Shown: piece after piece, positions 35,084 through 63,100 of the stretch
Position numbering within the stretch: the stretch's first letter is position 1
How the letters are laid out: the number at the start of each line of letters is the position of its first letter
NCBI GenBank assembly: GCA_024679065.1
Contig: JAGIQG010000009.1
Coordinates: forward strand, 102,424,001-102,488,000
DNA: 64,000 nt
Direction: 5' to 3'
DNA from: Sphyrna mokarran
Taxonomy: Eukaryota
Notes under the pieces: generated by a model
The model's database searches: none
What the model was told of the DNA's origin: nothing
Seen by the model: the letters and a program-made list of their open reading frames with translations, nothing else
Program-made: the position numbers and the translations under genes

Positions 35084-37690
35084 TGATGTACAGATGCCGG
35101 CGTTGGATTGGGGTGGTAAGAACTCAGTAAGAATTTAGCAACACCAATTTATAATCCAACTGATTTATTTGATTGTAAAAAAGCGAGCTTTCGACTCCTG
35201 TGTCTTCTTCAGGCAAATGCAGTGTTCTGGTCTGCAATAGCACACATCAGCACAGACAGTCAGAGATTGCTGACTAGAATGCGAATCCTTACATCTAACC
35301 TGCTATTCAAGTGTTAAAGTGGCGAACAATGTGTGTGAAGGGAATCCTGAGCATTGTTGGAGAATTGTGTGTTTTCTCCATTGGTGTTGCTAAATTCTTA
35401 CTGAGTTCTTACCACCCCAATCCAACGCCGGCATCTGTACATCATGACTACTATCGACACCGCATACTGCCGGATCCAAGTGGAGAGGATCTCCAAGAGG
35501 ATTGCACATATCGACACAGACATCAAGTTTCTACAGAGATGCAAGAAAGCAGACAGGATACCAAAGGGACTGCAGATCACGAACCCACTCAGGTCAACCT
35601 ATAACACAGACTACGCTGAGAGGCTTTGCCGTCGCACCTCTCTCACACTCCTCAATCGCCTCATACACCAGCTCTATAGCAAACGCCGCACCCTGGAAAG
35701 TAAAATGGAATACATATTCTCAACTTGCACTCAGGACGCAGATCAGTTGCGAAACTTTGCCAAGCAGATGAGACAAAGAAACTACACCATTTACATGCAC
35801 ACCAAGAACAGGAAACTTGAAAAACTCGGCATCGCCACCAGCAACAACCAAGCCTCCCTTGGCACCACAGTAGAAAACAACACTACCGCAGGGAGGTCCA
35901 TTGTTAACCTGTCGGACTACACACTTCAATCAGAGGAAATCGAAGTTCTCAGCCGAGGGCTCAATTTCTGTCCCACCACCAAAATGAACCCCATCAGTCT
36001 TGCAGCGGACACAGAGGAATTCATCAGGCGAATGAGGCTGCGTGAGTTCTTCCACAAACCCCAAGAGGCCAATAGCAGACACAATGAGATAGCTAATGAA
36101 CCAGAACAGCCGACAGAGGGATCAGCAGTGCAGCAACCGAGGAGGAATGAATCCAATTGGACTCCTCCGGAAGGCCGCTGCCCCCGACTGGACATGTATG
36201 CCCAAGCCATCAGGAGGTGCGTGAACACCAGATTTATCAACCGCACTTACAAGACAGTCCCGAACATCACCCCAGTACAACGCAAGGCCATCCGTGCTCT
36301 CAAGACCAACCGCAACATTGTCATCAAACCAGCAGACAAAGGAGGCGCCACCGTCATACTGAACAGAACAGACTACTGTGAAGAAGTGTACCAACAACTA
36401 AACAATGAGAAACACTACAGACAGTTACCAGCAGATCCAACCAAAGAACACACTCGTCAACTCAACACTCTGATCAAAACCTTTGATCCAGACCTTCAGA
36501 ACACCCTCCGGGCTCTCATTCCACATACTCCCCACATTGGAGATCTCTACTGCCTCCCAAAGATACACAAGGCAAACATACCCGGCTGTCCCATCGTATC
36601 GGGCAACGGGACCCTGTGTGAGAACCTCTCCGGCTATATCGAGGGCATCCTGAAACCCATCGTACAAAGAACCCCCAGCTTTTGTCTTGACATTACGGAC
36701 TTCCTACAGAAACTCAGCACACATGGAGCAGTAGAAACAGGGACACTCCTTGTCACAATGGATGTCTCGGTGCTCTACACCAACATCCCCCACGACGATG
36801 GTATTGCTGCAACTGCCTCAGTACTCAATGCCAACAACTGCCAGTTTCCAGATGCAATTTTACAACTCATCCGCTTCATCTTGGACCACAATGTCTTCAC
36901 CTTGAACAGTCAGCTTTTCATCCAGACACACGAAACAGCCATGGGGACCAAATTCGCACCTCAGTATGCCAACATCTTCATGCACAGGTTCGAACAAGAC
37001 TTCTTCACCACACGAGATCTCCAACCCAGGTTATATACTAGATACATTGATGACATCTTTTTCCTTTGGACTCATGGTGAACAATCATTGAAACAACTGT
37101 ATGATGATATCAACAAGTTCCATCCCACCATCAGACTCACCGTGGACTATTCTCCAGAATCAGTTGCATTCTTGGACACACGCATCTCCATCAAGGACGG
37201 TCACCTCAGCACCTCACTGTACCGCAAACCGACAGACAACCTCACAATGCTCCACTTCTCCATCTTCCACCCTAGACACGTTAAAGAAGCCATTCCCTAT
37301 GGACAAGCCCTCCGTATACACAGAATTTGCTCAGATGAGGAGGATCGTGACAGACACCTCCAGACACTGAAGGATGCCCTCGTGAGAACAGGATATGGCG
37401 TTCGACTCATCGATCGACAGTTCCAACGTGCCACAACGATAAACCGCACTGATCTCCTCAGAAGACGAACACGGGACACGGTGGACAGAGTACCCTTTGT
37501 TGTCCAGTACTTCCCCGGAGCGGAGAAGCTACGACATCTTCTCCGGAGTCTTCAACATATCATTGATGACGATGAACATCTCGCTAGGGCCATCCCCCCC
37601 CCCCCACTTCTTGCTTTCAGACAACCGCACAACCTCAAACAGATCATTGTTCGCAGCAAACTACCCAACCTTCAGGAGAACAGTGACCAC
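35084..37690 (+). mobile_element. Penelope-like retroelement, young, inverted pLTR, lacks GIY-YIG domain
   Basis: Inverted pLTR 35084-~35360. Homology to the first copy stops at cagtgaccac 37690. 15-bp TSD cagggtaacRtgtca at 35058-35072 and 37699-37713. Confidence 0.93.
35183..35218 (-). ncRNA. Hammerhead ribozyme motif in inverted pLTR
   Basis: Minus strand GC-CUGAAGA-A-GAC-ACAGGA-GUC-GAAA-GCUC-GC. Stem I is short. Confidence 0.62.
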
Positions 37691-37744
37691 AATTCTTACA
37701 GGGTAACATGTCACCAGTTGTACGCTTTTCCTCGTTATGATTAG
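35444..37744 (+). CDS. Penelope-type reverse transcriptase ORF (766 aa), truncated before the endonuclease
   Basis: Motifs IKPADKGGA, YCLPKIHK, TMDVSVLYTNI, AMGTKFAPQYAN, RYIDDIF, FLDT, LYRKPTD. The last ~17 codons read into flanking DNA. Confidence 0.92.
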   Translation: MTTIDTAYCRIQVERISKRIAHIDTDIKFLQRCKKADRIPKGLQITNPLRSTYNTDYAERLCRRTSLTLLNRLIHQLYSKRRTLESKMEYIFSTCTQDADQLRNFAKQMRQRNYTIYMHTKNRKLEKLGIATSNNQASLGTTVENNTTAGRSIVNLSDYTLQSEEIEVLSRGLNFCPTTKMNPISLAADTEEFIRRMRLREFFHKPQEANSRHNEIANEPEQPTEGSAVQQPRRNESNWTPPEGRCPRLDMYAQAIRRCVNTRFINRTYKTVPNITPVQRKAIRALKTNRNIVIKPADKGGATVILNRTDYCEEVYQQLNNEKHYRQLPADPTKEHTRQLNTLIKTFDPDLQNTLRALIPHTPHIGDLYCLPKIHKANIPGCPIVSGNGTLCENLSGYIEGILKPIVQRTPSFCLDITDFLQKLSTHGAVETGTLLVTMDVSVLYTNIPHDDGIAATASVLNANNCQFPDAILQLIRFILDHNVFTLNSQLFIQTHETAMGTKFAPQYANIFMHRFEQDFFTTRDLQPRLYTRYIDDIFFLWTHGEQSLKQLYDDINKFHPTIRLTVDYSPESVAFLDTRISIKDGHLSTSLYRKPTDNLTMLHFSIFHPRHVKEAIPYGQALRIHRICSDEEDRDRHLQTLKDALVRTGYGVRLIDRQFQRATTINRTDLLRRRTRDTVDRVPFVVQYFPGAEKLRHLLRSLQHIIDDDEHLARAIPPPPLLAFRQPHNLKQIIVRSKLPNLQENSDHNSYRVTCHQLYAFPRYD

Positions 37745-44623: not shown

Positions 44624-47600
44624 CTACAGCTAAAGGTAATGAGCTGGGTGCTCGCATTTAAATAGTTTAAGATAGTTCTTCTCCAGTAGAGTTCCTCCAA
44701 TTTAAGCCAGTTTGTCACTGATAGCTGTGCTCCTGGATTTAATTTACCTCTTCATCAGTAGTTGTGGCTTTCAACAAGGGTTCCTTCAGCTCCTCGAGGA
44801 AGAAAAATATAAAAATATGAATTCAAATATCTTCAGCAATGGAAAAATGTTCATTTTTATCAACTCGCAAAAAAAAAGGACAGATCTGTAACTACTGATA
44901 CAAAAATGGAAAATGCTGGAAAATCTCTGCAGATCTGACAGCACCTGTGAGGTGAGAATAGAGACAACGTTTTGAGTCTCGGTGACTGTTTTATCAGAGC
45001 AGGTAACCTGAATTTGATTTGCCTCTACTTTTGAAAATCATGCTTTCAATTTAGTTCTTTCCTTTAAACATGAACAAGTTTAGCTTTTTTTTTGTTAGAC
45101 AGAAGCAACCTGTCAAGGTTTCAATGTATAACTTCAATTTTGATCTTTCTCTAATCTCTGACCATCCATTAGATCATTTATTGTAATTTTCAAACTATAA
45201 ATTTCAACATTAACTATTAATTTTTCTTTAAAGTTTATTTAGTCGTGTCACAAGTAGGGTTACATTAACACTGTAATGCAGTTACTGTGAAAATCCCCTA
45301 GCCTCTTCGGGAACCCTAAGAGAGAATTTAGCATGGCCAATGCACCTAACCAGCATGTCTTTCAGATGTGCAAGAGCAGATTTGGTTTTATTTAACTTCC
45401 CTATGAAAAATTCAGCAGGATGTAATTTCAAAGAAATAATCCCCTTCATCCTTGGATTAAACAACTCTGCTTACAGTAAGCACAGTGGCATGCATGCAAT
45501 TCAGCAGATACTAGAACCTCTCATTTTCCCAAAGTAATTGTTTGGTAGATATGCCGATGACAATAATCTCTCCCTTGATATCAATAAAATAAAGGAGATA
45601 GTTATCAGTGTCAGGAGGACATGCCCCTGTCTACACCAACAGTGATGAAGTGGAGACGGTCAAGAGGTTCAACTTTCTAACTGTTCAAATCACCTGTCCT
45701 GCTCCCTCCACGCTGCACCATAGTTTAGGAAGCCCACCAGCGCTACTACAGAAGGCTAAGGAAATTCAGTACATCCGCTACAACTCTCACCAATTTTTAC
45801 AGAAACACCCTTCCTGGATGTATCGTAGCGTAGTACAGCTCCTGTTCTAACCAAGATCACAAGAGACTACAAAAGGTCATGAATGTAGCCCAGTCCATCA
45901 AGCAAACTAGCCTCCCATCTACTGACTCCGTCTACACTTTCTGCTGCCTCGGAAAAGCAACCAGCATAATTAACGACCCCACGCACCTCAGACATTCACC
46001 TTCTTCCTTCAGGAAAAAGATACCAAAGTCTGAAAACATCTGCTGCCAGCATACTTTTGTATGGTCATGTCACATATTAAGGTCATCTTTCTCTTCACCC
46101 TATCTGTAATTGCAACACTATGTTCTGTACCCTCTCCTTTCCTTTTCCCCAATGTACTCTATGAGTGGTATATTTTGCCTGTATAATGCATAAGAAAAAA
46201 TATTTCTTACTGTATTCCAATGTATGTGACAATAGCAATTCAATTCAATCCAAAGCAATTCAATACAATCAAATTGATTCGATCAAGTCAAGTCAAATCA
46301 AATCAAATCAATTCAATTCAAATCAAATCAAATCAATTCAATCAAATCAATTAAATTCAATTCAAACCAATTCAATTCAAATCAAATCAATACAATCAAT
46401 GCAAATCAAATCAATACAATTCAATTCAATAATCACAGCTGAATAGCAAAAAAGAAACAAAGAACAAGATTCTCTGGCCTCCCCGCGGCATGTTTCTTGG
46501 CAGTAGGGAGTGGCCCTCTGTCAATGGGATGGGAAGATCCCACTGCCATGAACAACTGGAAGATCTTACTCAAAATCTTCCTTTTCTGACAACAATAACT
46601 TGAGAAAGGAAAGTCCATTTAGAGAAAAGTTGAGAGCAAAGGCTGCTTTTCGAAACCTGTGACTTGTAAATGGACCAAATACTTACAAACTGTTGACATT
46701 CATCAGGATCTTTTCCACTGGGAACTGTGAATGCTGTTCCATTTGTCCCCTTATTCAATTTTTTACCTGTTGATGTGAACAGAGAATGAAAAGCAAACTG
46801 AGCAAAGGTTCCGCTGAATAGATAATGAGTAATTATATCGCTCTGTAACATCTTTCCCAAACACGATCTCCTTCACATTTTAACATGCAATTCAACAAAG
46901 TTTAGCAGTCCAAATGAAACTGCTTGCTCATTATATTATTGACTTGCTTATTTTAATGTCTCTGTTGAAAGGGAATTGGTCCATTTCACAGAAATATTAT
47001 ACTCAAAAAGTTAGTTCTATTACCACAGGCTGGTTAGAAGGTCTGTCTTAGTGCTATGAGAGTTCGTCACAGTTATAATAATAGCAGTTAAGGAATGTCA
47101 GCCCACAACCAAGGCAGACCAAAGGCCCAGTAAATGTAGAAAACTCTCGGGCTGCATAACTGCATGCTAATCTATAAAAACAGCACACAGTAAAATGTGA
47201 TGAATGTATATAGTTTGTTAAAGAATTGAACTGTAATGTATGTAATTTCTTGGAACTGAGCACTGTAAAATATTGAAGTTAAGGAAATTGTAAATATGAT
47301 TTTTTGCACTGTTTATAATGATTAGAAATGTCATTTCTGTAATCGTCTATTTCGGAATATTTATGAATAAAATGTTCTTTTGAAATTAAAAAAAATTGGA
47401 AAACCCAGCCCTTTGTAATCATTACAACATGGTGAGGCAGCACAGTGGCACAGTGGTTTGCACTGCTACCTCATAGTGTCAGGAACTCAGGTTTGATTCC
47501 CGGTTTGGGTCACTGTCTGTGCAAAGTCTGCATGCTCTCCCCGTGTCTTCATGGGTTTCCTCTGGGGTGGTCCAGTTTCTTTCTACAGTCTAAAGATGTG

Positions 47601-50600
47601 TGGGTTAGGTGAATTGGCCATGCTAAGTTGTCCCTTAGTGTCAGGGGGATTAGTAGGATAAATACATAGAGTTCTGGAAATAGTGCCTGGGTAGGATTGT
47701 GATTGGTGTAAACTCAATGGGCCAAATTGCCCTCTTCTGCACTGTAAGAATTCTATGATAATAGTTTGGAATCAAGCTCTAAATGCATCAGTATTACTTA
47801 CATATGATATGAAGCACAAAGGCTATTAAAAAGGAAACAAACAGAATTCCCAAAGAAGCAACTATGGTTCCTTGTAGATTGGCTGCTGGTTCACAACCTT
47901 TACCTGTAATGGATAACATCATGAACTGCGGTTATTAAAATTATACAAATGGTCTGACCTCTTGGTTGTATCACAACCACTCACCGCTCCCCAATATTGC
48001 TGCTTGGATTATTATTTCCAGTACGCTGAAGATCATACACTAGAAGGTGGCATAGTGCCACAGTCATTAGCATTGCTGCCTCACAGCACTAGAGATTTGG
48101 GTTTCATTCTGGCCTTAAATGACTGTGCGGAGTTTGTACATTCTTCCCCATTTGCGTGGGTTTCCTCTGGGTGCTCCGATTTCCTCCCACTGTCTAAAAA
48201 TGTCCAGATTAGGTGGACTGTCCATGCTAAATTGTCACTTAATGTCCAGACACGTGCAAGTTAGTTAGATTGGCAATGCTAATTGTCCCTTAGTGTTCAA
48301 AGATGTAAAGTTTAGGTGGATTGACCATGCTAAATTGTCCTTTTGTGTCCAGAGATGTGAAATTTAGGTGGATTGGCCATGCTAAATTGTCCCTTTGTGT
48401 CCATAGATGTGAAGTTTAGGTGGATTGGCCATGCTAAATTGTTCCTTAGTATCCAAAGAACATAGAACAGAGAACATTACAGCGCAGAACAGGCCCTTCA
48501 GCCCTCGATGTTGCGCCGACCAATTAAGAAAAAGCAATGACCCTCTAACCTAAACCATTCCCTTTTCATCCATAAACCTATCCACTGACCACTTAAATGC
48601 CCCCAAACTTGGTGCATCTACAACTGCAGCAGGTAGGGCATTCCTTATCCTTACCACCCTCTGGGTAAAGAACCTACCTCTGACATCCATCCTATAACTA
48701 CCACACCTTAATTTAAAGCTATGTCCCCTCATGCTAGCTTTCTCCATCCTAGGAAAAAGGCTATCACTGTCCACCCTCTCTAATCCTCTGATCATCTTAT
48801 GTGCTTCAAAAAGGTCTCCTCTTAGCCTCCTTCTTTCTAATGAAAACACCTCAAATCCCTCAGCCTCTCCTCATAAGACCTTCCCTCCATACCAGGCAAC
48901 ATCCTGGTAAACCTCCTTTGCACCCTCTCCAATGTCTCCACATCTTTCTTATAATGTGGCGACCAGAACTGTACACAATACTCCAAGTGCAGCCGCACCA
49001 GAATTTTGTACAGTTGCAACATGACGTTGCGGCTCCAAAGTTCAATCCCCCTACCAATAAAAGCCAAGATTTCATATGCCTTCTTAACAACCTTATCGAC
49101 TTGATTGCCAACTTTCAGGGATCTATGCACATATACACCTAGATCCTTCTGTTCGTCAACACTATTAAGAGTCCTACCATTAGCCCTATACTCTATACAT
49201 TTGTTATTCCTGCCAAAGTGAATTACCTCACACTTTTCCACATTAAACTCCATTTGCCACCTCTCGGCCCAGCTCTGCAACTTGTCCAAGTCTCTCTGCA
49301 AACCATAACACCCCTCTTCACTGTCTACCACTCCTCCAACTTTGGTGTCATCTGCAAATTTAGTAATCCATCCTTCAATACCCTCATCCAGATCATTTAT
49401 AAAAATTACAAACTGCAGAGGCCCCAAAACAGATCCCTGAGGTACACCACTTGTAACCGAACTCCATAATGAATAATTCCCAATCAACCACCACCCTCTG
49501 TCTTCTATCAGCTAGCCAATTCCTAATCCAATTAGCTAAATCACCCTCAATCCCATACATCTGCATTTTCTGCAGAAGCCTTCCATGGGGAACCTTATCG
49601 AACGCCTTACTAAAGTCCATATATACCACGTCAACTGCCTTACCCCCATCCACCTCTTTGGTCACTTTTTCAAAAAACTCAATAAGGTTAGTAAGGCACG
49701 ACCTACCCTTCACAAAACCATGCTGACTATCCCCAATCAATTCATTTCTCTCTAAATAACTATAAATCCTATCCCTAATAATTCTTTCCAATATTTTGCC
49801 CACGACAGAAGACTCACCGGTCTATAATTCCCAGGAGAGTCTCTATTCCCTTTCTTGAACAATGGGACAACATTCGCTATCCACCAGTCATCCGGCACTA
49901 TACCTGTAACTAACGATGACCTGAAGATCAGAGCCAAAGGCTCTGCAATCGCCTCTCTTGCCTCCCAGAGAATCCTAGAGTAAATCCCGTCCGGCCCAGG
50001 GGACTTATCTATTTTCAAACCCTTAAGAATATCTAACACCTCCTCCTTATCTACTTCAATACTTTCCAGTTTACAACCCTGTATCCCAGTGTTCTCCACA
50101 ACTACATTTATGTCTCCCTGCGTGAATACCGAAGAGAAATACCTCTCTGTACCTCTGTGATCTCTCTGATCCTCTCTGATCTCTTCAGGCTCCACGCACA
50201 ACTTCCCACTGCTGTCTCAGACTGGCCCTAATCTTGCCCTAACCAATCTTTTATTCTTAACATATCTAAAGAAAGCTTTGAGTTTACACTGATAACTGAT
50301 AATGTACTGATGACAATGAAATCATTGTTGGAAAAACCCATCTCGTTTAGTAATGGACCTGCGGAAAGGAAATCTGCCATCCTTATCGCTTCTGGCCTAC
50401 ATGTGACTCAAAGCTACAGCAATGTGGTTGATTCTCAACTTCCCTTAGGCAAATAAATGCCGGCCAGTGACGCCTACGTCCCACAAATGAATTAAAAGAA
50501 GTTCACCTGAGTCCCAGGATAATCAGATAGAAAGGCACGTGCATCCATAATCGAGACTGGGTGACTGAAGATGTGCACATTAAGTGGATTTACCATACTA

Positions 50601-53600
50601 AATTGTCCCTTAGTGCCCAGGGATGTGCCGGTTAGGTGGATTGGCCGTGTTAAATTGTCCCTTAGGTACAGGGGATTAGGCAGCGTACGTGGATTACAGG
50701 GATAGGGGCTGTTGGGTGGGAGTGTTGTTGGTGCAGGCTTGATGGGCCATATGCCTTATTCTGCACTGTAGGGATTCTACTTGGTACGATTTGTTATCTC
50801 TTATTATAATAAAACAACTAGCCAGGACATTGTGCTTTTAGCATTCTGGACACAGCTTGAAGTATGCATCATAAAGTCACGCATTCTCTGCCTTTGGTTT
50901 CCAATTGCCAACTCTAATTATCTGAAAATTATGGGCATCTTTGTGTAATTTTCAAACTTCACTGCTGAGATGATAACTCCCATTGCACTTTACTGCTGAG
51001 ATGATAACTCCCATTGCAAATTTCTTTTGCGCTTTGAAAATAAAAACCTCGCATAAAATCTTTAACTTATCCCCATTTGTAACTGGTCCATCATTGTTGA
51101 TCATTCTATCAGCCCCAGGGACGGCCTCGGGTTATTGTCTGTGCAGAGTCTGCACATTTTCCCTGTACCTGCATGGGTTTCCTCCAGGTGCTCCGGTTTC
51201 CTCCCACAGTCCAAAAGATCTGCAGGTTAGGAGGGTTGGCCATGATGAATTGCCTGTTAGTGTCAGTGTAAATATATGGGGACAGGGTGGGTTTGTTGTT
51301 GGTGCAGGCTTGATGGCCTGAATGGCTTCCTTCTGCACTGTGGAATTCCAGTCTATGACTTGATGGGATTAGATTTGGACTGGTCTGCAAAACAGCTAGT
51401 ATGGACACGATAGATGGAGTTAATGGGGAGGGGGAGCGAGGGAACAGGAATCACTGTTGACAATAGTGGGACCAGTGATCCCATCGCTGGCCAGTAGTGG
51501 GTGGTATCTCCTGCTGCAATACATGCCACGGGGTGGAACAGAACATCTTACTCTATGGAACGAATAGCCTTCTGCACTGTGACCCTCAATACGAAACATT
51601 GGCAATAACAACTGCATAACTTGCTCTCCTGTTCGGACTGTTCCTAGGATGTGACATCTGGAATGAGTTTATTGACCGTGGTTTAATCACTGAACACTCA
51701 CCAGTACGCTTCACAATTTCAGCGATCAGGACGGTTGACATACATATCACAATGATTCCACTCAGTGGAGTAACGATTGGGGTCAGTCGGCAAGCTGGCA
51801 ACAGATAAAAGACAGAATCACAGAGTATGCACACACCCAACAGATGCCCTGGTCCGCCTGCCGAACTTTGAGAAATGTGACTGGTCAAGGACAGCGCAGG
51901 GGCGATTTTCTCAGTTACTGAGTTTGGGATTACTGGGTCATCAGGACTTTGAAGGGCTAGGTTTGTCATGGTCATTTCCGGTGCCTGGGTCAAGTCCAGG
52001 AGTCCGTCCAGTTTCATTTGTTATTGGTTTTCTAACAGTTTGGTACAAAATAATTGGTTGTGTGACCATTTCGGTGGAGTCGTCCATATTGTGGCTCTGG
52101 AGTCACACGTAGGCAAGGACAGCAGATTTCCTTCCCTAAAAGACATTAGTGAACCAGGACAATTGGGAGGAGAGGGCAACAGGCCTCTCACAGTCCATCA
52201 ATGATAGCATTGAATTAAAATTGACAAATAGAAATTCACCCAGCCTCGATTATGGATTCTATCTGACTATCCTGGGACTCAGGTGAACTTCTTTTAATTC
52301 ATTTGTGGGACGTAGGCATCACTGGCCAGCATTTATTTGCCAAAGGGAAGTTGAGAATCAACCACATTGCTGCAGCTTTGAGTCACATGTAGGCCAGAAG
52401 AGATAAGGATGGCAGATTTCCTTCCCGCAGGTCCATTACTGAACCAGATGGGTTTTTCCAACAATGGGTTCGTTGTCATCAGTACATTATTAATTCAAGA
52501 TTGTTTTTATTGAATTCAAATTTCATCATCTGCCATGGCAGGATTTGAACCCAGGTCCCCAAACATTAGCGGAGTTTCTGGATTAATCGTCTAGTGATAA
52601 TATCACTAGGCCATCATCTTCCCAGGTCTAAATGGTCCNNNNNNNNNNNNNNNNNNNNNNNNNNNNNNNNNNNNNNNNNNNNNNNNNNNNNNNNNNNNNN
52701 NNNNNNNNNNNNNNNNNNNNNNNNNNNNNNNNNNNNNNNNNNNNNNNNNNNNNNNNNNNNNNNNNNNNNNNNNNNNNNNNNNNNNNNNNNNNNNNNNNNN
52801 NNAGTGTGTACATATCTGTGTACACATAAATATCTATGTGAATGTATCTGTATGTGCGTGTGTATGTGTGTGTGTGAATATGTATGTGAATGTGTGTGTG
52901 AATGTGTGTGTGAATGTGTGTGTGAAGTGTGTGTCTGTGTAAATGTATCTGTGTGAGTGTGTGATTGAGTGAATGAATGAGTGAGTGAGTGTGTGTCTTC
53001 TAGCCTTGTAGAATCAGAAGACTGTGGGATCAAACTCACTTGAAGACTTGACTGTATATTCTAGGCTAGCACTTCAGTGCAGTAGTGTGCAAGTGTGACT
53101 CTGTCAGCAACACTGTGTTCTGAATGTCAAACTTCGGTTTCTTACTCTCCATCAACTCAATATAACAATCCCAAGGCACTATTTTCAAAGAAGAACGAGA
53201 AAATCTTTCATCATTCAACCTTCAAACATCAAACCAAACTACCCAGTCAGTTACCTCACTGGTGTTTGTGGGACATTGGTTAATCTCAATCTAGCTGATG
53301 TTTCCCACATTATAGCAATGGTTAGATTTCAAGGTCAATTCATTGACAATGAAATGTTTGAGATTCGAAAGGTGCTATACAAATGCAAGTGCTTTTTATA
53401 TAATTTACAGTGCATGGCAGTCTCAGTCTTGTTCAAACTGTACAGAAGGAAGTCATTAATGTAGCCATAACATTCACAAACAGTGTTTCAAACATTTGCA
53501 ATTTCCTGCAGAACTGTTCCTCAAGATAGATCCATTTAAAAAGACAAAAGTAGGAAATAACTTGACAAATCTCATGTTATTTCTGTCAGCCCTTGTCCCC

Positions 53601-56600
53601 AGTTTGTTCAAATAGTAAAATAAAGTGACTTATGTGGTTGAAAAAGGATCATGGACATAGAATCCCTACTGTGTAGAAGGAGACCATTCAGCTCATTGAG
53701 CCTGCACTGACCACCCAGGCCCTTTGTCTGTAACTCCATGTATTTACCCCGCTAATCCCCCGATACTAATGGGATAATTTAGTGTGGCCAATCTACCTAA
53801 TCCACACGTTTGGAGCATGGGTGCAAACCGGAGCACCCGGAGGAAACCCACACAGACACAAGGAGAATATACAGACTCCACACACACACTTAAAGCCCGA
53901 ATCAAACCTGGGTCCCTGACTCCATGCTACTGTGCTACTATGCTACCATTGTATTCAACCAAATACAATTGGTATTATTTGGAAACTCCAGGGTAGAAAT
54001 TTGTCTGTTTTCTATTTCTTGGGCGTGAAATTGCTGCATTATACACAATTTCTCGTTCTGCACCGAATCCACTTCTGGTAGCTAGGCTGCTTTAGTTTTG
54101 GTCCTCTCTGCTTTTAGGCTTCCCAACAGTTGCCTTCAATCAGCAACAGATCAATGTAAAGGCACAAAGAAGGGCCCAGCACTTGCTGCCAGACCCTTCT
54201 GTGAAATATAATTTAAAGAACAAGATTGAATAGGTGCTATGCATTTTCCTTCCAGTTTCTTTCATTATGGCGCACAGCTGTTAGCACTGCTCCCTTACAG
54301 TGCCAGGGACCCACGTTCAGTTCCAGTCTGCGTTGAGGTGGAGATTCCCAAAACCATCAGAAATGATCATATCAATGAAACAGCGTTCAGTTGGAGGTGG
54401 CTGCGGGAAATCAGAAACTGAAGGCCCTTTTGTTGAGGTTGCCTTGAGTTTGTCATCAGGCTCAGATAGCTTGGGTGGCGCAGTGGGTTAGCACTACTGC
54501 CTCACAGTGCCAGGGACCCAGGTTCAATTTCAGGCTCGGCTGATTATCTGCATGGGTTTCTTCCTGGCTTTTCCTCTCACAGTCCAAAGATGTGTAGTTT
54601 AGGGTGATGAGCAGTGTAAACGCACGAGATTATGGGGTTAGAGTGGGGAGTAGGCCTGGGTGAGGTGCTGAATCGGCGTGGATTTGATGGGCCGAATGGC
54701 TTCCTTCTACACTGAGTGAGTGTTTTGAAGGGGCTATGCTGAGTACTGCCTTCCCACACTCAATGGAATTTTACCATCCTGCCTCAGAAATTGTGGCGGG
54801 TGGGACGTGGGCCGTGCAAAGCCCCATTAACCTTACCGGTCTTGGTTAGAGCACAGTGGAAAATCCCACCCAGAGTGTGTTACTCGACTCATCTCCCAAG
54901 ATTAACGGAAAGTCAACAGGTCTGAATCCAAGCCAGTACGTTGAGCAGGCTGTCCCATCGCCTCCTCAACTCCCGCCCCAGCTTAAATCTCCACCTTACC
55001 AATCCTCCACCCACTTCACACCCACTCTCCACTTTAAATGCGCACCGCATCAACTCCCCACCCCCACAACATTACCCGTAAGGGCTTTGATAGTGTGATA
55101 CGAATATGTAACTTGTATCTCAACTTACATTTGAGAATCGTATTTAACACTTTTGAGTCACAGACCTTCATATTACCAGCCAAAAGTAAGGCTCTTATTG
55201 ACAGGAGGCACACAAACACCAACGAGAACACTGTGATTTCAGAAGCTCCTGTTGAAATAAAACAGAACATGAACAGAGTCAGAGACATTCAGAGATTAGA
55301 CACCATTAAATACCATTGTTATTTCATTCACCACTCTGTCTTTCACAAGAACCCCCTAAGAATTCATAGAGGAGTCTATATTTGATAATACATTTTGTTT
55401 TTTTTTTAAAAAAGCCTTTGCAAAGACTCATGACTAAGTTAAAAGCATATAGAGTGACTCAGGGAACAAGTAACAAAAATGGTTAAGAAGCTGCTTAGGT
55501 TGGTAGGAAGAATGAAGATTCACACATGGCTTGGAAAATATTAGTTTAAATAGGATGGAACAGCAAGGGATATAGATAGAAAACCCGTAAAACTAGTGGT
55601 TACCACTGCTCCCTTGCTGCTGCATCTCCACATCATGGCCTCACTGCGCCAGGGTGCCAGGTCCAATTCCAGTTTTGGGTGACTGTCTCTGTGCGGTTTG
55701 TATGTTCTTCCTGTGTCTGCTTGGGTTTCCTCCCACTGTCCAAAGATGTCTAGGTTAGGTGGATTAGCCATGCTAAAATGTCCCTCAGCCTCCAAAGATA
55801 ATCAGGTTAGGTGGATTGGCCATGCTAAATTGTCCCTCAGTTTTCAAAGATGTGCAGGTTAGGTGGATTGGCCATGCTAAATTGTCCCTCAGTTTTCAAA
55901 GATGTGCAGGTTAGGTGGATTGGCCATGCTAAATTGCCCCTTAGTGTCTAAAATTGTGTAAATTAGTCATGGTAAATGCATGGGGTTATGGGGATAGGGC
56001 AGGATAAATGCTCTAAGTGCTTTTTCAGAGGGAGAGTCAGTGCAAACTTGACAGGCCAAATGGCCTTCTTATGCACTTTAGGGATTCTATGGTGCAATAG
56101 TTAAAAATGCGTTTAAACAAAAGTTGGGGCCCATTACAAGGGGAATACTGTTGAAATGATGAGAAGTAACTTCTGTTAAAACTTTGGCTAGACCACGTTT
56201 AGTTCTGCCTAAAAAATGATAGAAGCACTATAAACATACAAAAGAAATTTATAAGAATTATACAAAACTGAAAAGTTATACCTGTGAGGAAAGGTTGGAG
56301 CTCAACTATATCAACTGAGAGGTTATTTATACCTGTGAGGAAAGACTGGTAGAATAAATGTAATGAATGTTTCCACTTGCGGACAAAGTGTGCATCGTCA
56401 ATATAAGATAATCTAATAAGAATTCAAGTGAAACTTTTTTTGCCCAGAAATTGATTCAAAAGTGGATTGGTTACCATATAATGTCTGAGGGGATAACGTG
56501 GATTCAGTTCACCCAAAGCACACGGAGGAGAATGAAATAGAAGGAAGTGCTAAGTGCATAAATTGAAGAGGAAGGAGAAAAGGCTCAGATGCAGCATCAA

Positions 56601-59600
56601 TGCTAGTATGAAAGGGCCGAAGGGCCTGTTTCAATGCTGGAACTCATGTCAATCGTTGAGTACAATATTTCATTGGGGAGCCAATGGGAAACGTTCTCTG
56701 ATCAGGTGTATGGAAAATTTTGGGAAATAAGATTATACAGCTCATCATGCCAGCATTCTTAACTTCAGACCAGACAGAGCTAACAGGACCCACGGAGTGA
56801 TACTGTACAGGACAAGTGCGATAACTCTGTCAAAGCTAACACACAGATTGGCACAGAAAACACATCCCTCGTCCATTGACAGGTTAAGGATGACTTGCAT
56901 TAGTGTCATAGAGCAAGACAGCATGGAAACAGACCCTTTGGCCCAACCAATCCATGCCAACAATGATGCCCTCCCAGCTAATCCCAATTGCCCGCATTTG
57001 GCCCATAACCCTCTATTCCTCTGTCCCTGTTCTTTATCGAGAAGGAGATCAGTCTGAATTGCATTAACTTTTTCCCATTGTCTTTGGCTGGTGTTAGCAC
57101 ATTCCTGCATTGACAGAATATCCGAGACTCGTCTGCAATTGGTTTCTGGGAGAACAGAAGATTGACACTTTGCAGTCTCAATGACTGACAGCATCATACA
57201 GGCAAGCTTACCAATACGTGGCAGCAGTACCTTCTAATTCCCGGTTTTTAATCAAGTATTTTCTTTGGTAAACAAACCTGACTGTTTACCCCACTGACGT
57301 TATGCCCCAGATAATTTTAAACAAAGATCAGGAAAACACAATTTCAAAACTCAAGTGACTGGAAAACCTCAGCAGTTCTTTCATCTGTAAGAAGAGGAAA
57401 GAGCTAATGTTTCAAGTCCAGATGATATTTTATGAAAGCCTAAAGTGACTGATTCACTGTTGTCATGCAAAACAGAGCTGGGTAATCTCAGAAAGGTGCT
57501 GAAAAACATTGCATGACAACACTGCACATATTAAGGGTTAAACTGAGCAACTGGTTGCTTTCTCTTTAAAAATTTCAAAAGAAAATCTTTCAACTATTTC
57601 GTTCATAATCTACTATGCAGAACAGGTCTCGATAATTTCACGCTATTTCTTGTTTTCTTCCCATCTATATTTAAGCATTTGATAGAATTAATTGTCATTT
57701 AGAAAGGCAAGAACCAGTCAGAGATGGTCAGCATGGATTTGTCAAAGGAATGTATTGCCTCACAAACTCGATTGAGGAAGTGACAAGGAGAGTTAATGAA
57801 GGTAGTTAATGCGGTGGATATTGTGTACATGGATCGCAACAAGGTGTTTGACAAGGTCCTACGTGGCTCTAATGAAGGGTTATCCAGAGTCGAAAGTTTG
57901 GCTCCATTCTTTTTCCACAAATGCTGTCAGACCTGCTGAAACTTTCCAGCATTTTCTGCTTTGTCCTACATGATCAAAATAAGTAAAGGCCTATGTGTAA
58001 CAGGGTAATATGGCAAACTACACAAAAGTTGCCTTGGTAACAGGAAACAAAGGGTAATTGTTGATAGCTGCCCTTTTGAATGGAAAATTGTTTCAAGTGT
58101 GGCTCGGTGTTGGGACCTTATTACTTGTGAGGGTGACATGGTGGCACAGTGGTTAGCACTGCTGCCTCACAGCACCAGGGACCCAGATCGATTCCCAGCT
58201 TAGGTGACTATCTGTGCAGAGTATGCATGTTCTTCTCCAATCTGTATGCATTTTCTCAGGGTGTTCCAGTTTCCTCCCACAGTCCGAAAGATATGCTGGT
58301 TAGAGCACACTGGCCATGCTAAATTCTCTCCCAGTGTACCCGAACAGGCGCCAAAGTGTGGCGACTAGGGAATTGTCACAGTAACAGTGTTAATATAAGT
58401 CCACTTGTGACACTAATAAATAAGCTTAAAACTTAAACATACCTTCAACATATATCCAACATCCAAAAGCACCAATAAGAAATTGAAACTGCAGGACGTG
58501 TAATTCAGGTTGAAGAAGCAGAACAGCTGGAACAAAAAGAGAATTCATTTCAATGTTGGTTGAGAAAGAAATAATCTCACATCCTACAAAGAAACAGAAT
58601 TCAGTTTTAAACAATAGAAATGTCTGTGTTTCAGACATGAAAATAAGTGTTTCATTGGGTCTGTATTATTAAACTATAATATTTTAAAACTTCCAGCATT
58701 AAAGTTGCAAAACTCAAAAAAAAAAGTGTTCTTACGTATTGTTTTGGGTCCAAAGAAGAACAAAATTAAATTTAAAGCCAAGGCAGCCACAGCAGTGATG
58801 AGTGCAGCAATGGAGAATACCTCTGCATAACGGTGCAATGGTGCCACAGCTACAATAGAAAGTTTAAAAGTTTATTTATTATTAGTGTCTCAAATAGACT
58901 TACATTAACACTATAATGAAGTTACTGTGATAATCCTCTAGTTGCCACACTCCAGCACCTGTTCCAGTACACCAAAGGAGAATTTAGCAACTAACCAGCA
59001 CATCTTTTGAACTGTGGGAGGAAACCCACGCAAGCATGGAAGAAAGTGCAGATAGTGACCCAAGCTGGGAATCGAACCCAGGTCTCTGGTACTGTGAGGC
59101 ACCAATGCTGACCATGGTTAGCACCCACAAAGTTTATTTCAAATGTATACTACTTTAAATCTGTTAACAATTGCAAAAAGTGTCTTCTTTATCTTAAAAT
59201 GTATTTATCGACATTCTTGAATGTTGGAAACTAAATATATCCACCAGGCATGCCTACTACTTCAAGGTGAAACACTTATTCTCTATTTTTCCACAACAGT
59301 GTACCACAACAATAGAAACATAGAAAATATGAGGAGTAGGCCATTGGGTCTTCGAGCTTACTACGTCATTCATTAAGATTATGCTGATTCTCTATCTCAG
59401 TGCCATTTTCCAGTGCTCTTTGCATCCCCCTTGAAACCTTTAGAGTCTAGAAATCTATTTACTTATTAAATACCTTCAGTGATTTGAAGCCCTACGGCCT
59501 TCTGCAGTAGAGATTTCCACAGGTGCACTGTCCTCTGAATGAAGCAATTTCTCCTCATCTCAGGCCTAATTGACCTACCACATCCTAAGTCTGTGACCCC

Positions 59601-61596
59601 TTATTCTAGACACCCAGAAAATACAACATCCCTACATCCAATCTATCCAATGCTGTCAGAATTTTATACATTTCAATTAGATCCCCTCTCATTCTTCTAA
59701 ATTCCAATGAATACAAGCTTGGTTGACCCAATGTCTCCTCAGTTTGTTTCACTGCATCCTCTTGATAGCAAGTATGTGGCAAGGAGACCAAAACTGCATT
59801 CAATATTCTGAATTTGGTTTCAGCAAGGCCATATGCAGCTGCAATAAGACATCCTTGCTCCTGTACTCAAGTCTTCTTGCGATGAAGATCAACATATCAC
59901 TTGCCTTTCTAACTGCTTTCTGCACTTACATGCTTGCTTTCAGTGGCACCATGGTCAGAGTTGTACCATGTCTCCTATCATGGGAATCGGAGCGGGTGAG
60001 GGGCGAACCATGGAAAGGTCTGTTGACTTTGGGCAGGGTTTTACTGTTTCGGGATGTAAAACCCTGCCCCATGAATATATCAGAATGTAATGTTCCATTT
60101 CCCATATTGGGCAAATTATCAACACTCTTAAAGGGAATGTGAAGTTAAAATTGTGATTTTTCACGTTGGCGCTTTCAGTGTGTCAGGAAATTGCACATGA
60201 CCAGTCTATTCCTCGTCCTATCTCCTACCTTGAAGATATATAACATTATTCCCATAACATCTTTGGAGAGACTGAGTGAAAGGCAAAGTCAATGGAATGT
60301 AGATTCAACTAATGAATGGAATAGACTGACAGGCGTGACTCACTGGAAATGACAAGAGTATAGGAGTGGTTCTTCTTGCTGACGGCGTTCTCCACTGTAC
60401 ATGTGTAGATCCCACAGTCTGACTTGCTGGCTTCAGAAATTATGAGCTTGCTGCTGTTTTGCGCGAACTGATAATGTTGGCCGTTTTTTAATACTTCAAC
60501 ATCTTTCCTCCACAAAATGGATCTCGCTTTCCCCATGGACACTCGATAGGTCAGCTCAATGGTGCTATCCACGTAGATAGCATTGATCAATGGTTCTGAT
60601 AGTGCCTCTGTGGGGAGAGAAAATGTTCAGATAAACAGGTCTGAGTATGTAGATACCATTGTTACAAGTTACAATGGTGTAGTTAACTAAAAAGAGTTGT
60701 GACCTTCACAGATGCATCAGAGTACCCACAACCCTAAACTGATTCTGTAATCCGGTCACTTAACTCCATCATCTCCTACTTCACCCATCACCCTTCTAAC
60801 TCCCAGACTCTATTAATCTAATGGTCAATGTACTGCCTCGCATCCCCCATTCTTTAACTCATCTAAAATTCTGCTGCCTGTTTTGTATCCTGTACCATGT
60901 CCCAGCCACTCCTGTCCTCACTGCCCTGCACTGTGTCCTCTCTATCAATTGTCGAAATGTAAAATTCTTGCCTCATGTCAAAATCCTATTTTTATTTTAC
61001 TCTTTGTATTTCTGTAAACTATTCCAATTCTTCAAAACTACTCCTTCCACCTCCCTGCCTCTCCCACAAAAATCTCCATTCCTTCCACAAAAATCTCCAT
61101 TCCTCCCACTCTGGTCTTTGTTGCATTCCATCAGTGGCGGCCACTGTCTTTGGAATTATTCCTTTGGCAGAATAGGCATGTGAGGGCCTGTTCCCAGTCC
61201 TATCTTATGACAAGAGTTCTCAAGTGGAAAACAATCCATGTGATGAAAAGTCTGTCAGTTTCAAAATGTCGAATTGTTGAAAGCACTTACCGATAAGGTT
61301 CAAATCAGTACTTCTTATCAATTTACCCTCTACGTTGATGGAATAAACTCCTTGGTCACTAGGCTTTAAATGGTTTAATCTCAATGACCCAGTGGATGAA
61401 CTGAAGAGTAAACGAGATTTGAAGTGCTTATTTGGTTTCTTGATTGGGTGATTTGGCATGTAATCCAAAATGGTAACCAGGTTCCCATCAGCGCCAGTGA
61501 ACGTCCACACAACTTCACTCTTACTGAGGTCAACTCCATATCCTGGGTCCAATAAAACTGATGAACCAATGGCAGCAAACATTTCATTTCTTCCAG
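44603..61596 (-). CDS. Spliced gene (10 coding exons in window): IgV + IgC2 + five transmembrane helices + short cytoplasmic tail; CD2/SLAM-like ectodomain on a CD47-like membrane domain; possibly a decaying paralog
   Basis: Join on minus strand 61596-61291, 60607-60344, 58849-58736, 58526-58443, 55248-55129, 51794-51702, 47903-47802, 46766-46687, 44792-44748, 44623-44603. All introns are GT-AG with matching phases (1,1,1,1,1,1,1,0,0), giving one open frame of about 409 aa ending in TGA. No start/leader exon found in window. Confidence 0.85.
44748..44792 (-). CDS. Exon: cytoplasmic tail 2
   Basis: Long pyrimidine tract ending in atypical gag acceptor, donor GAG|gtaaat, 45 bp, phase 0-0. ELKEPLLKATTTDEE. 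Confidence 0.65.
45550..46236 (+). mobile_element. Rex1/Babar-type LINE 3' portion
   Basis: Homologous to 16820-17630; runs into pentanucleotide tail. Confidence 0.8.
46237..46430 (+). repeat. (TCAAA/TCAAT)n microsatellite expanded from the LINE tail
   Basis: Mixed pentamer array directly 3' of the Rex/Babar element. Confidence 0.95.
46687..46766 (-). CDS. Exon: cytoplasmic tail 1
   Basis: Acceptor ttctctgttcacatcaacag, donor T|gtaagt, 80 bp, phase 1-0. CKKLNKGTNGTAFTVPSGKDPDECQQF. Basic stop-transfer residues directly follow TM5. Confidence 0.82.
47080..47396 (+). mobile_element. Tx1-like 3'UTR/poly(A) remnant
   Basis: Ends tttatgaataaa...tttgaaattaaaaaaaa like the 40181-40886 element. 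Confidence 0.5.
47802..47903 (-). CDS. Exon: extracellular Cys loop plus transmembrane helix 5
   Basis: Acceptor ttatccattacag, donor T|gtaagt, 102 bp, phase 1-1. GKGCEPAANLQGTIVASLGILFVSFLIAFVLHII. Not shown in the ORF track. Confidence 0.88.
48200..48457 (+). repeat. ~52-bp tandem repeat inside a V-SINE
   Basis: About five copies of gatgtg..gttaggtggattggccatgctaaattgtcccttagtgtccaaa; continues at 50569 after a LINE insertion. Confidence 0.85.
48458..50281 (-). mobile_element. CR1/HER1-type LINE, 5'-truncated RT region with frameshifts
   Basis: DKSPGPDGI, NYRPVSL, QHGFVKGRSCLTNL, YMDFSKAFDKVPH, SGVPQGSVLGP, KFADDTK, RLHLEYCVQFWSP; (TTCTATG)-type tail. Confidence 0.95.
50961..51018 (+). 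repeat. 27-bp direct repeat
   Basis: actgctgagatgataactcccattgca at 50961 and 50992. Confidence 0.9.
51702..51794 (-). CDS. Exon: transmembrane helix 4
   Basis: Acceptor ttttatctgttgccag, donor G|gtgagt, 93 bp, phase 1-1. SCRLTPIVTPLSGIIVICMSTVLIAEIVKRT. Confidence 0.87.
52639..52802. other. Assembly gap (run of N)
   Basis: 164 N characters inside the TM3-TM4 intron. Confidence 1.
52803..52996 (+). repeat. (TG)n/(TGAA/TGAG)n simple repeat
   Basis: Degenerate TG array adjoining the gap. Confidence 0.95.
55129..55248 (-). CDS. Exon: transmembrane helix 3 plus cytosolic loop
   Basis: Acceptor ttttatttcaacag, donor T|gtaagt, 120 bp, phase 1-1. GASEITVFSLVFVCLLSIRALLLAGNMKVCDSKVLNTILK. Confidence 0.87.
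55740..55955 (+). repeat. ~52-bp tandem repeat inside a V-SINE
   Basis: About four copies of the same unit. Confidence 0.85.
58443..58526 (-). CDS. Exon: transmembrane helix 2 (more polar)
   Basis: Acceptor ctctttttgttccag, donor AG|gtatgt, 84 bp, phase 1-1. PVLLLQPELHVLQFQFLIGAFGCWIYVE. Confidence 0.85.
58736..58849 (-). CDS. Exon: transmembrane helix 1
   Basis: Acceptor ttctattgtag, donor C|gtaaga, 114 bp, phase 1-1. TVAPLHRYAEVFSIAALITAVAALALNLILFFFGPKTI. Confidence 0.9.
59312..59945 (-). mobile_element. CR1 3' portion, degenerate (intronic)
   Basis: LYSLEFRRMRGDLIEMYKIL; catagaaa tail. Confidence 0.8.
60344..60607 (-). CDS. Exon: Ig C2/I-set domain
   Basis: Acceptor ttttctctccccacag, donor A|gtgagt, 264 bp, phase 1-1. 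EALSEPLI...IELTYRVSMG...ILWRKD...NSSKLIISEASKSDCGIYTCTVENAVSKKNHSYTLVIS. N-glycosylation sequons NSS and NHS. Confidence 0.92.
61291..61596 (-). CDS. Exon: N-terminal Ig V-set domain without the canonical disulfide (CD2/SLAM/CEACAM type)
   Basis: GRNEMFAAIGSSVLLDPG...EVVWTF...FKSRLLFSSSTGSLRLNHLKPSDQGVYSINV...TDLNLI. C-strand Trp and DxGxY motif present, no Cys. Donor G|gtaagt at 61290. Acceptor ambiguous (in-frame gag at 61597 vs out-of-frame aag at 61626). Confidence 0.9.
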
Positions 61597-61889
61597 CTCA
61601 TTAATGTAAAATACAAAATTTATTCCTTTAAAATGTGACAATGAAGCACCGACATTCAGCGACAGTAGTGAAGAAAGGGGCAATGGCTCAGTGGTATTAT
61701 CGCTAGAGTAGTAATCCAGGGAAATTTTCTGGAGACCAGGGTTTGAACCTCACCATGGCTGATGGTGAAATTTGAATGAATAAAAATGTGGAATTTAAAG
61801 TCTAATGATGACCATGAAATGATTGTTGTAAAAACCTATTTGGTGGGCAACACAGTGGTATAGATGTTTTCCTGGGCACCCGTTAGCCT

Positions 61890-63100
61890 CCTACACTCCA
61901 GGGAAAAAAAGTCCCAGTCTATCCTGCCTCTCCTTATAACTCAAACCATCAAGTTCTGGTAGCATCCTAGTAAATCCTTTCTGCAGGCTTTCTAATTTAA
62001 TTTCTATAATAAGGTGACCAGAACTGTTCAAAGTGTTCCAAGTGTGGCCTTATCAATGTCTTGTACAACTTTAACAAGATGTCCCGGCTCCTGTATTCAA
62101 TGTTCTAACCAATGCTGAATGCCTCCTTACCACGCTATCCACCTGTGACTCCACTTTCAAGACCTATGAACCTGTACCCCTAGATCTCTTTGTTCTATAA
62201 CTCTACCATTAACTGATTAAGTCTTGCCCTGATTCAATCTACCAAAATGCATCACCTAGCATTTATCTAAATTAAACTCCATTTGCCATTCATCGGCCCA
62301 CTGGCCCAATTGATCACCATCCCATTGCAGTCCTCTATAACCTTCCTCACTGTCCACTATGCCACCATTCTTAATGTCATCTGCAAACCTACTAACTGTG
62401 CCTTCTCAACTCTCATCAAATCATTTACATAAATGACAACTAACAGTGGACCCAGCATTCCTCAGTACTGATTCCTGAAACATACCACTGTCACAGGCCT
62501 CCAGTTTGATAAACACACCTCTACAACTATTCTTTGTTTTTTGTCATCAAGACAATTTTGTATTCAATTGGTTACTTTGCCCTGGATCCTATGAAATAAA
62601 CTTATGCAAGAATCTACCATGCAGTACCTTGTCAAAGACCTTGCTAAAGACCACATGGGCAACATCTGCTGCACCGCCCTCATCTACCTTCTTGGTTAGT
62701 CCTTGAAAAAACTCAATCAAATTTGTGAAATATGGTTTTCCACTCACAAAGCCATGCTGACTGTCCTTAATCAGTCCTGGCCTCTATAAGTGCCTGTAGA
62801 CTCTGTCTCTCAGAATATTTCAAACAACATTTCCACTACAGATGTTAGGCTCACCAGTCTGTAGTTCCCAGGCTTTTCCCTGCAACACTTCTTAAATAAA
62901 GGCATAATATTTGCTACCCTCCAATCTTCAGGCACCTCACCAATAGCTGTCAATGATCCAAATAACTCTGCTAGGGGATCTGCAATTTCCTTCCTATCCT
63001 CCCACAACATCCTTAGATACATTTCATTAGGTCCCAGGGATTTATCTACTTTGATACACTTTCAGACTTCCAGCACCTCCTTCTCTGTAATATGTACACA
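61890..63100 (-). mobile_element. CR1 RT region, degenerate
   Basis: EVPEDWRVANIMPLFKK...NYRLVSLTS; FADD antisense at ~62375. Confidence 0.85.

Follow-up and report, generated by a model that had tools for sequence, protein, structure and literature searches.

The window (the whole stretch of Sphyrna mokarran DNA that was analyzed, 64,000 nucleotides) holds nine coding exons of a minus-strand gene encoding a V-set domain, a C2 domain, five hydrophobic helices, and a tail.

The gene and its surroundings

The reading frame is continuous over all nine exons, with one terminal stop only, and every intron is bounded by AG/GT; the exon limits and splicing of the shark gene are predicted from homology and from these AG/GT ends. 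Protein P0006 from Mustelus asterias matches each of the nine exons, and from C2 to the tail the two proteins are 84% identical across 302 columns. The membrane region is laid out over five exons with one hydrophobic segment in each. Residues are counted from the first V-exon codon, which gives Cys167 in the E-F turn, Cys172 on the F-strand, and Cys331 in the loop between TM4 and TM5. Residue 167 is the first cysteine of the protein, with none earlier. The features are listed below; "rows" are those of the 58-row alignment of the family.

61291..61596, minus strand: V-set Ig exon, Cys-free, of the CD2/CD58/CEACAM type (Pfam V-set, E 3e-6; 90% identity to P0006; AG/GT ends)
60344..60607, minus strand: membrane-proximal C2/I-set Ig exon (Pfam I-set, E 2.6e-13; 87% identity to P0006)
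60546..60548, minus strand: TAT, Tyr123 at the site of the canonical B-strand Cys (Cys in 56/58 rows)
60414..60416, minus strand: TGT, Cys167 in the E-F turn (D-C-G), predicted Ig-side tether residue (Cys in 51/58 rows)
60399..60401, minus strand: Cys172, canonical F-strand Cys (Cys in 58/58 rows)
58736..58849, minus strand: exon for the linker and helix 1 (homology to P0006; helix 216-245 in the P0006 model)
58443..58526, minus strand: helix 2 exon, with Cys251 and the conserved Trp252 (homology to P0006)
55129..55248, minus strand: exon for helix 3 and a basic inner loop (3' end set from homologs; P0006 match)
51702..51794, minus strand: helix 4 exon (AG/GT ends; P0006 match)
47802..47903, minus strand: exon for the TM4-TM5 loop and helix 5 (84% identity to P0006)
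47893..47895, minus strand: TGT, Cys331 in the TM4-TM5 loop, predicted membrane-side tether residue (Cys in 53/58 rows)
46687..46766, minus strand: first cytoplasmic-tail exon (P0006 match)
44739..44792, minus strand: last coding exon, stop-terminated (94% identity to the end of P0006)

The hydrophobicity of helix 2 is weak in the shark copy and clear across the family. Neither a signal-peptide exon nor a further gene of the same family was found in the window.

The earlier note on this DNA had placed an unusual cysteine in the C2 domain (SDCGIYTC) and a lone cysteine in the predicted TM4-TM5 loop (GKGCEP), and had proposed a disulfide between them. Each of the two codons is TGT on the minus strand, at 60416-60414 and 47895-47893, and they belong to one frame; Cys331 is indeed the sole cysteine of its loop. 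The description of a C2 domain with an extra cysteine stands for Cys167, which is real, but the domain is otherwise abnormal, since its canonical B-strand cysteine is replaced by Tyr123.

Several features of the surrounding sequence were also recorded. An N-filled assembly gap (52639-52802) adjoins a CA-rich repeat in the intron between helices 3 and 4, where the Mustelus ortholog indicates no missing exon. In the V-C2 intron, at about 61064-61105, there is a 21-base tandem duplication that is missing from contigs of the sequencing runs of two other organisms. A 779-codon open stretch at 35405-37744 on the plus strand resembles a retroelement reverse transcriptase, with a broken copy near 10813-12232; from its motifs it is presumably Penelope-like. 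Broken pieces of LINE-type reverse transcriptase lie on the minus strand in introns and upstream (48550-50216, 59500-59950, and 61900-63060). The window also has many short interspersed repeats, with very high read depth in sequencing runs.

Family members and alignment

Word-based searches returned 39 proteins, every one from a shark or ray. A profile built from 26 of the 39 was run against 1.84 billion representatives, and the best 150 of 12,031 matches were used. Looking up names added members from chimaera, caecilian, newt, turtles, kittiwake, gulls, rhea, echidna, and platypus, as well as more sharks and rays; among the 20 proteins looked up from the best 150 of the 12,031 profile matches, no teleost or therian names were found. 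The names in use are all automatic, either uncharacterized or HEPACAM-, CD48-, 2B4-, CEACAM-, or VEGFR-like.

The test alignment of 58 rows consists of the window protein, 28 of the 39 word-search proteins, and 29 of the 150 profile matches. Omitted from the 39 were P0003, P0007, P0010, P0011, P0013, P0014, P0017, P0020, P0029, P0039, and P0041 (isoforms of genes already represented, truncated models, one isoform without C2, and one single-pass protein). Omitted from the 150 were 95 proteins of at least 1000 residues, 9 duplicates, and 17 isoform, partial, single-pass, or unrelated proteins. The 95 long multi-Ig proteins served as a background set, where 6 of 1433 D-x-G-x-[YF]-x-C motifs have cysteine as their second residue, against 51 of the 58 family rows; outside the family, cysteine is rare at this site.

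The portions of the open-access literature available, with few subscription journals in scope, contain no description of this V-C2 five-helix family, and the available passage of PMC13262535 mentions neither SLAM nor HEPACAM nor multi-pass proteins. In the ESM Atlas no usable match was found for the membrane region; for the bird protein the best match there is an automatically named cluster of 110 members, possibly its own.

Predicted membrane topology

Mean hydropathy over the family has five peaks. The per-row counts of K+R/D+E are 2.9/1.7 for loop 1-2, 0.5/1.4 for loop 2-3, 4.5/1.7 for loop 3-4, 2.1/2.4 for loop 4-5, and 3.5/0.8 for the stretch beyond helix 5, so that K+R minus D+E runs +1.2, -0.9, +2.9, -0.35, and +2.7 from loop 1-2 to the tail. 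Because the charge alternates and there are five passes, the N-terminus and loop 4-5 would both lie outside. The TM4-TM5 loop of the window copy, having 3 K/R vs 1 D/E, is by itself no mark of an outside location.

Models of P0006 and P0122 were used as stand-ins for the window's protein. In the AlphaFold2 model of P0006 (26 sequences; mean pLDDT 74, pTM 0.51), helices span 216-245, 250-278, 282-307, 318-351, and 359-391, and the loop cysteine, residue 353, falls between the last two in a block (351-360) with a pLDDT of 58. The AlphaFold model of P0122, a natural partial protein (46 sequences; pLDDT 79, pTM 0.64), has the matching five-segment pattern plus an extra short inner helix. These predictions favor a five-pass, N-out topology with an extracellular TM4-TM5 loop. 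A cytosolic loop, which the earlier note had held up as a difficulty for its own proposal, does not agree with the five helices and the positive-inside charge bias, which place the loop outside.

Joint conservation and joint loss of the two cysteines

The prediction that both cysteines would be conserved together in homologs was borne out: 51 of the 58 rows have both, 5 have neither, 2 have the loop cysteine only, and none has the Ig cysteine only. Both are retained in chimaera, amphibian, turtle, bird, and monotreme proteins. The double losses belong to three separate lineages of the tree (residues given as Ig/loop):

Scyliorhinus P0015 and P0016: Y/W
Carcharodon P0024 and Cetorhinus P0050: S/R
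Pristis P0140: S/F

When five Ig losses and three loop losses were placed randomly on length-weighted branches, all three loop losses fell inside lineages with an Ig loss in 0.13% of 200,000 draws (p=0.0013); calculated from branch share, the same coincidence of loop and Ig losses has a probability of 0.0004. Twenty-two columns are conserved in 80% or more of the rows. Of these, P0015, P0016, and P0140 deviate only at the two tether cysteines; P0024 and P0050 deviate at the same two sites and by one further substitution, I to V. Since the double-loss rows are nearly intact at the other conserved columns, there has been no general decay of these proteins.

The association is also strong by measures that, unlike the simulation and branch-share figures, ignore kinship. 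The Ig and loop cysteines head the list of 235 conserved variable pairs (phi 0.83, with the runner-up at 0.65), stand third among 32,212 pairs by normalized mutual information, and are mutual best partners within a set of 259 columns (phi 0.83, against 0.42 and 0.44 for the next). The TM2 cysteine was considered as the tether partner and rejected, with a phi of 0.28 with the loop cysteine and a place outside the eight best partners of the Ig cysteine. P0014, which has the Ig cysteine without the loop cysteine, was rejected as an exception, as its longer isoform P0227 has both.

A few sequences outside the count depart from the pattern. P0150, a Hemitrygon model, has the E-F cysteine with a single helix and is perhaps a fused gene model. 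In P0003, P0004, and P0005, the distal duplicate of C2 also has the E-F cysteine, with no loop within reach; these duplicates have a cysteine on strand A' as well, a possible partner. The loop cysteine is kept in P0071 and in two isoform models that have no C2, P0092 and P0112, all three with the V domain adjoining the membrane.

A substitute cysteine on strand A'

The two rows that have lost the Ig cysteine and kept the loop cysteine, P0022 (Chiloscyllium) and P0085 (Pristis), both have a cysteine on strand A', 9 residues upstream of the B-strand cysteine. These proteins are distant from each other on the tree, and P0058 (Hemiscyllium), the sister of P0022, has the D-C-G cysteine and a tyrosine at the A' site. 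A cysteine 7-11 residues ahead of the B-strand column occurs in 11 of the 58 rows, the window copy being without one. It is present in 9 of the 51 rows with both tether cysteines and in 0 of the 5 double-loss rows, and the probability of both swaps by chance is about 0.03. Pairing is ambiguous in the 9 rows with an A' cysteine in addition to the two others; the remaining 42 of the 51, the window included, have none. By the general anatomy of Ig domains, the E-F turn and the A' site would both face the membrane. Our reading is that the loop cysteine requires one free cysteine at the membrane end of C2, and that either the E-F residue or its A' neighbor can serve.

Other variation in the family

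Six proteins (P0012, P0021, P0030, P0031, P0004, and P0005) form one clade in which about 29 additional residues separate helices 2 and 3. This insert resembles a copy of the helix 4 exon and contains a cysteine, and all six members also have the A' cysteine, a hint of a further tether between Ig domain and loop. The ray proteins P0081, P0099, and P0071 have a longer membrane region, with at least 7 hydrophobic segments by eye, and keep a cysteine before the last helix; the layout of one helix per exon seems to allow such repeats. In the single-pass Scyliorhinus proteins P0105 and P0041, C2 is joined to an exon like that of helix 5; both are without the E-F cysteine and have cysteines on strand A', on the G-strand, and in the stalk. 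P0017, P0092, and P0112 are C2-skipping isoform models, in which V and five helices give the CD47 layout. The tetrapod members P0154, P0133, P0148, P0160, and P0177 have an additional cysteine in mid-C2, and some have another near the C2 start, which suggests an added intradomain disulfide.

The C2 domain of the window copy

Only in the window copy among the 58 rows is the canonical B-strand cysteine replaced, by Tyr123 (TAT); the other row without it is a partial protein missing that region. A contig of a sequencing run that may be the source of the window covers 60008-61700 with 0 differences from the window and is the sole contig across 60509-60619. Its agreement at the Tyr123 codon argues against an assembly slip, and it is not independent support. 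P0041, the single-pass relative, has a serine at this position. With the B-strand cysteine missing, Cys172 has no partner and could compete for pairing, and the C2 of the window copy may fold or pair abnormally. The tether is less certain in this copy for that reason.

Proposed mechanism and alternative explanations

In this gene the two cysteines lie on exons for C2 and for the predicted last extracellular loop, and over the family they are conserved together, lost together, and, where only the Ig cysteine has been lost, accompanied by a substitute on strand A'. As judged from sequence comparison, a bond between the Ig cysteine and the loop cysteine is very probable for the family as a whole, and an intra-chain Cys167-Cys331 tether like that of CD47 is probable in the window copy (roughly 80%). 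The suggestion in the earlier note of a CD47-like tether from a different position on the Ig domain has thus gained support from conservation, joint loss, and predicted topology, the bond itself being inferred. In the proposed arrangement, C2 would rest on the extracellular side of the five-helix bundle, clamped there by Cys167-Cys331, and the clamp would hold the ectodomain in place on the helices in the manner of C15-C245 in CD47. The Cys-free V domain would be held at a fixed angle toward a ligand on a cell surface, and ligand binding would be coupled to the helix bundle through the tether. By analogy with CD47, the tether would have a role in V orientation and coupling, and the type of ectodomain suggests that the family may have an immune role.

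The same pattern of joint loss is predicted if the C2 cysteine of one molecule pairs with the loop cysteine of another to form a covalent cis dimer, or if both pair with one partner protein, and co-variation over three loss events is blind to whether a bond is within or between chains. Such inter-chain pairing is nevertheless improbable: in the available portion of the report on CD47, the bond taken as precedent joins the receptor's own two domains (PMC8410850), and a swap to the nearby A' cysteine is explained more simply within one chain. The small number of loss events, just three, could also be taken to mean that there is no bond, the cysteines being kept for separate reasons (as free thiols, for acylation of a cytosolic loop, or in an A'-EF intradomain bond) and lost jointly by chance or under relaxed selection. 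P0150, P0071, and the distal C2 duplicates are exceptions that would agree with this, and the 9 rows having both of those cysteines could form an A'-EF bond; 42 of the 51 rows with both tether cysteines, however, have no A' cysteine, the tree-based probability of the coincidence is about 0.001, the double-loss rows retain nearly all other conserved positions, and the parity of five helices places the loop outside. The absence of a bond is accordingly very improbable.

A tethered family with an untethered window copy, whose C2 misfolds or pairs Cys167 with Cys172 in a weak or decaying allele, is also unlikely, although three features of this copy are in its favor. Tyr123 is unique to the window row, helix 2 has an extra proline and is the least hydrophobic of the window's helices, and the terminal branch is 0.12 long vs 0.082 for P0006. 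Against decay, the frame is open, splice sites are canonical throughout, and both tether cysteines are retained; Tyr123 is the sole deviation of the window at the 22 conserved columns, where the median is 1. Ig domains are able to fold without the core disulfide, and the V domain of the window protein is itself Cys-free. The intra-chain tether between Cys167 and Cys331 is preferred for the window copy.

Significance of the family

The tether as a device is already known from CD47; a separate V-C2 five-pass family, another Ig position for the anchor, and natural losses and swaps were not found in the available portions of the open literature. On balance the evidence somewhat favors a second lineage of five-pass Ig receptors, of jawed-vertebrate age, expanded into a variable cluster of genes in sharks and rays and kept as far as monotremes. 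Such a lineage would have either the CD47 membrane domain by descent or a convergent clamp under a CD2/SLAM-type ectodomain, with the clamp lost three times and the Ig anchor moved twice. A separate Ig family with the CD47 layout and a co-evolving pair of Ig and loop cysteines would show that this design is not unique. Lineages with the tether, without it, and with it on another strand are natural experiments on its role, and the bird, turtle, and amphibian members are amenable to ordinary cell assays. In databases the family is obscured by automatic names of the HEPACAM-, CD48-, and VEGFR-like kind.

Comparison with known systems

The ectodomain resembles that of CD2/SLAM and HEPACAM/CEACAM-type molecules in having a V domain that lacks the core disulfide and precedes a C2 domain, the arrangement found at the N-terminus of CD2/SLAM proteins. 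Searches with the full P0006 model gave Ig matches only, led by CD58, nectin-like, and CD48 chains, tied at Z 13.3-13.6. CD2/SLAM and HEPACAM/CEACAM-type molecules are single-pass or GPI-anchored, unlike the shark protein with its five hydrophobic segments, and the E-F cysteine is rare elsewhere. SLAM members have tyrosine switch motifs in the tail; no YxxL/I/V motif was found in the tail of the window protein. Skint proteins, which are butyrophilin-like, have an IgV and IgC ectodomain on several membrane helices and would be alike in placing two Ig domains on a multi-pass membrane region. No Skint or butyrophilin names were found among the named homologs, and we know of no tether in Skint proteins.

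Structural comparison of the membrane region was made with the P0122 model, which consists mostly of that region. Its best matches among solved structures align helices 1-4 with generic four-helix bundles (Z up to 10.9), and a Foldseek search of solved structures gave nothing at E 0.001 or below. In the search of viral folds, poxvirus CD47 proteins rank 3 and 5 and OPG166, which we take to be a poxvirus CD47 homolog, ranks 10 (E 0.16-0.53). These superimpose poorly (TM 0.24-0.28, rmsd 19-22 A), which, for a predicted model, points to a common order of elements rather than to a common fold. Human CD47 is absent from the best 50 matches of each P0122 fold search, the Pfam CD47 membrane family is absent among the best 25 of 97 families for 46 members, and phmmer with P0122 against PDB sequences has no CD47 among the best 60 of 117; each of these results is compatible with kinship.

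The closest parallel is CD47 itself. In the portion of the CD47 structure paper available, a conserved cysteine of the loop between helices 4 and 5 is predicted to be bonded to the Ig domain (C15-C245), a bond counted there among the two points that anchor the ectodomain, and earlier work cited there found that Cys-to-Ser change reduced SIRP-alpha binding, adhesion, and signaling (PMC8410850). That portion also calls CD47 the only five-pass immune receptor and reports that its membrane domain was found to have no relative in sequence or structure (PMC8410850). The available part of a second report places the tether residue, Cys33, 8 residues ahead of Cys41, and gives exon 2 to IgV and exons 8-13 to the tails, from which the membrane domain would apparently occupy five exons (PMC10902115). 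The shark protein is like CD47 in having an Ig ectodomain on five predicted helices with a short tail, a conserved cysteine in the helix 4-5 loop (here in 53 of 58 rows), and an apparent one-exon-per-helix membrane domain, and the substitute A' cysteine of P0022 and P0085 is close to the CD47 tether position. It differs in having a Cys-free V domain and C2 rather than a single IgV with a core disulfide, and in a usual tether cysteine that is in the C2 E-F turn and not on strand A'. It also has no SWF linker (the window's linker is without Trp or Phe ahead of helix 1, and the family consensus is G-x-x-x-L-H) and belongs to a multi-gene, variable family in cartilaginous fish. With two Ig domains, a different usual anchor, and no SWF linker, the protein is not classed as CD47, yet it would work like CD47.
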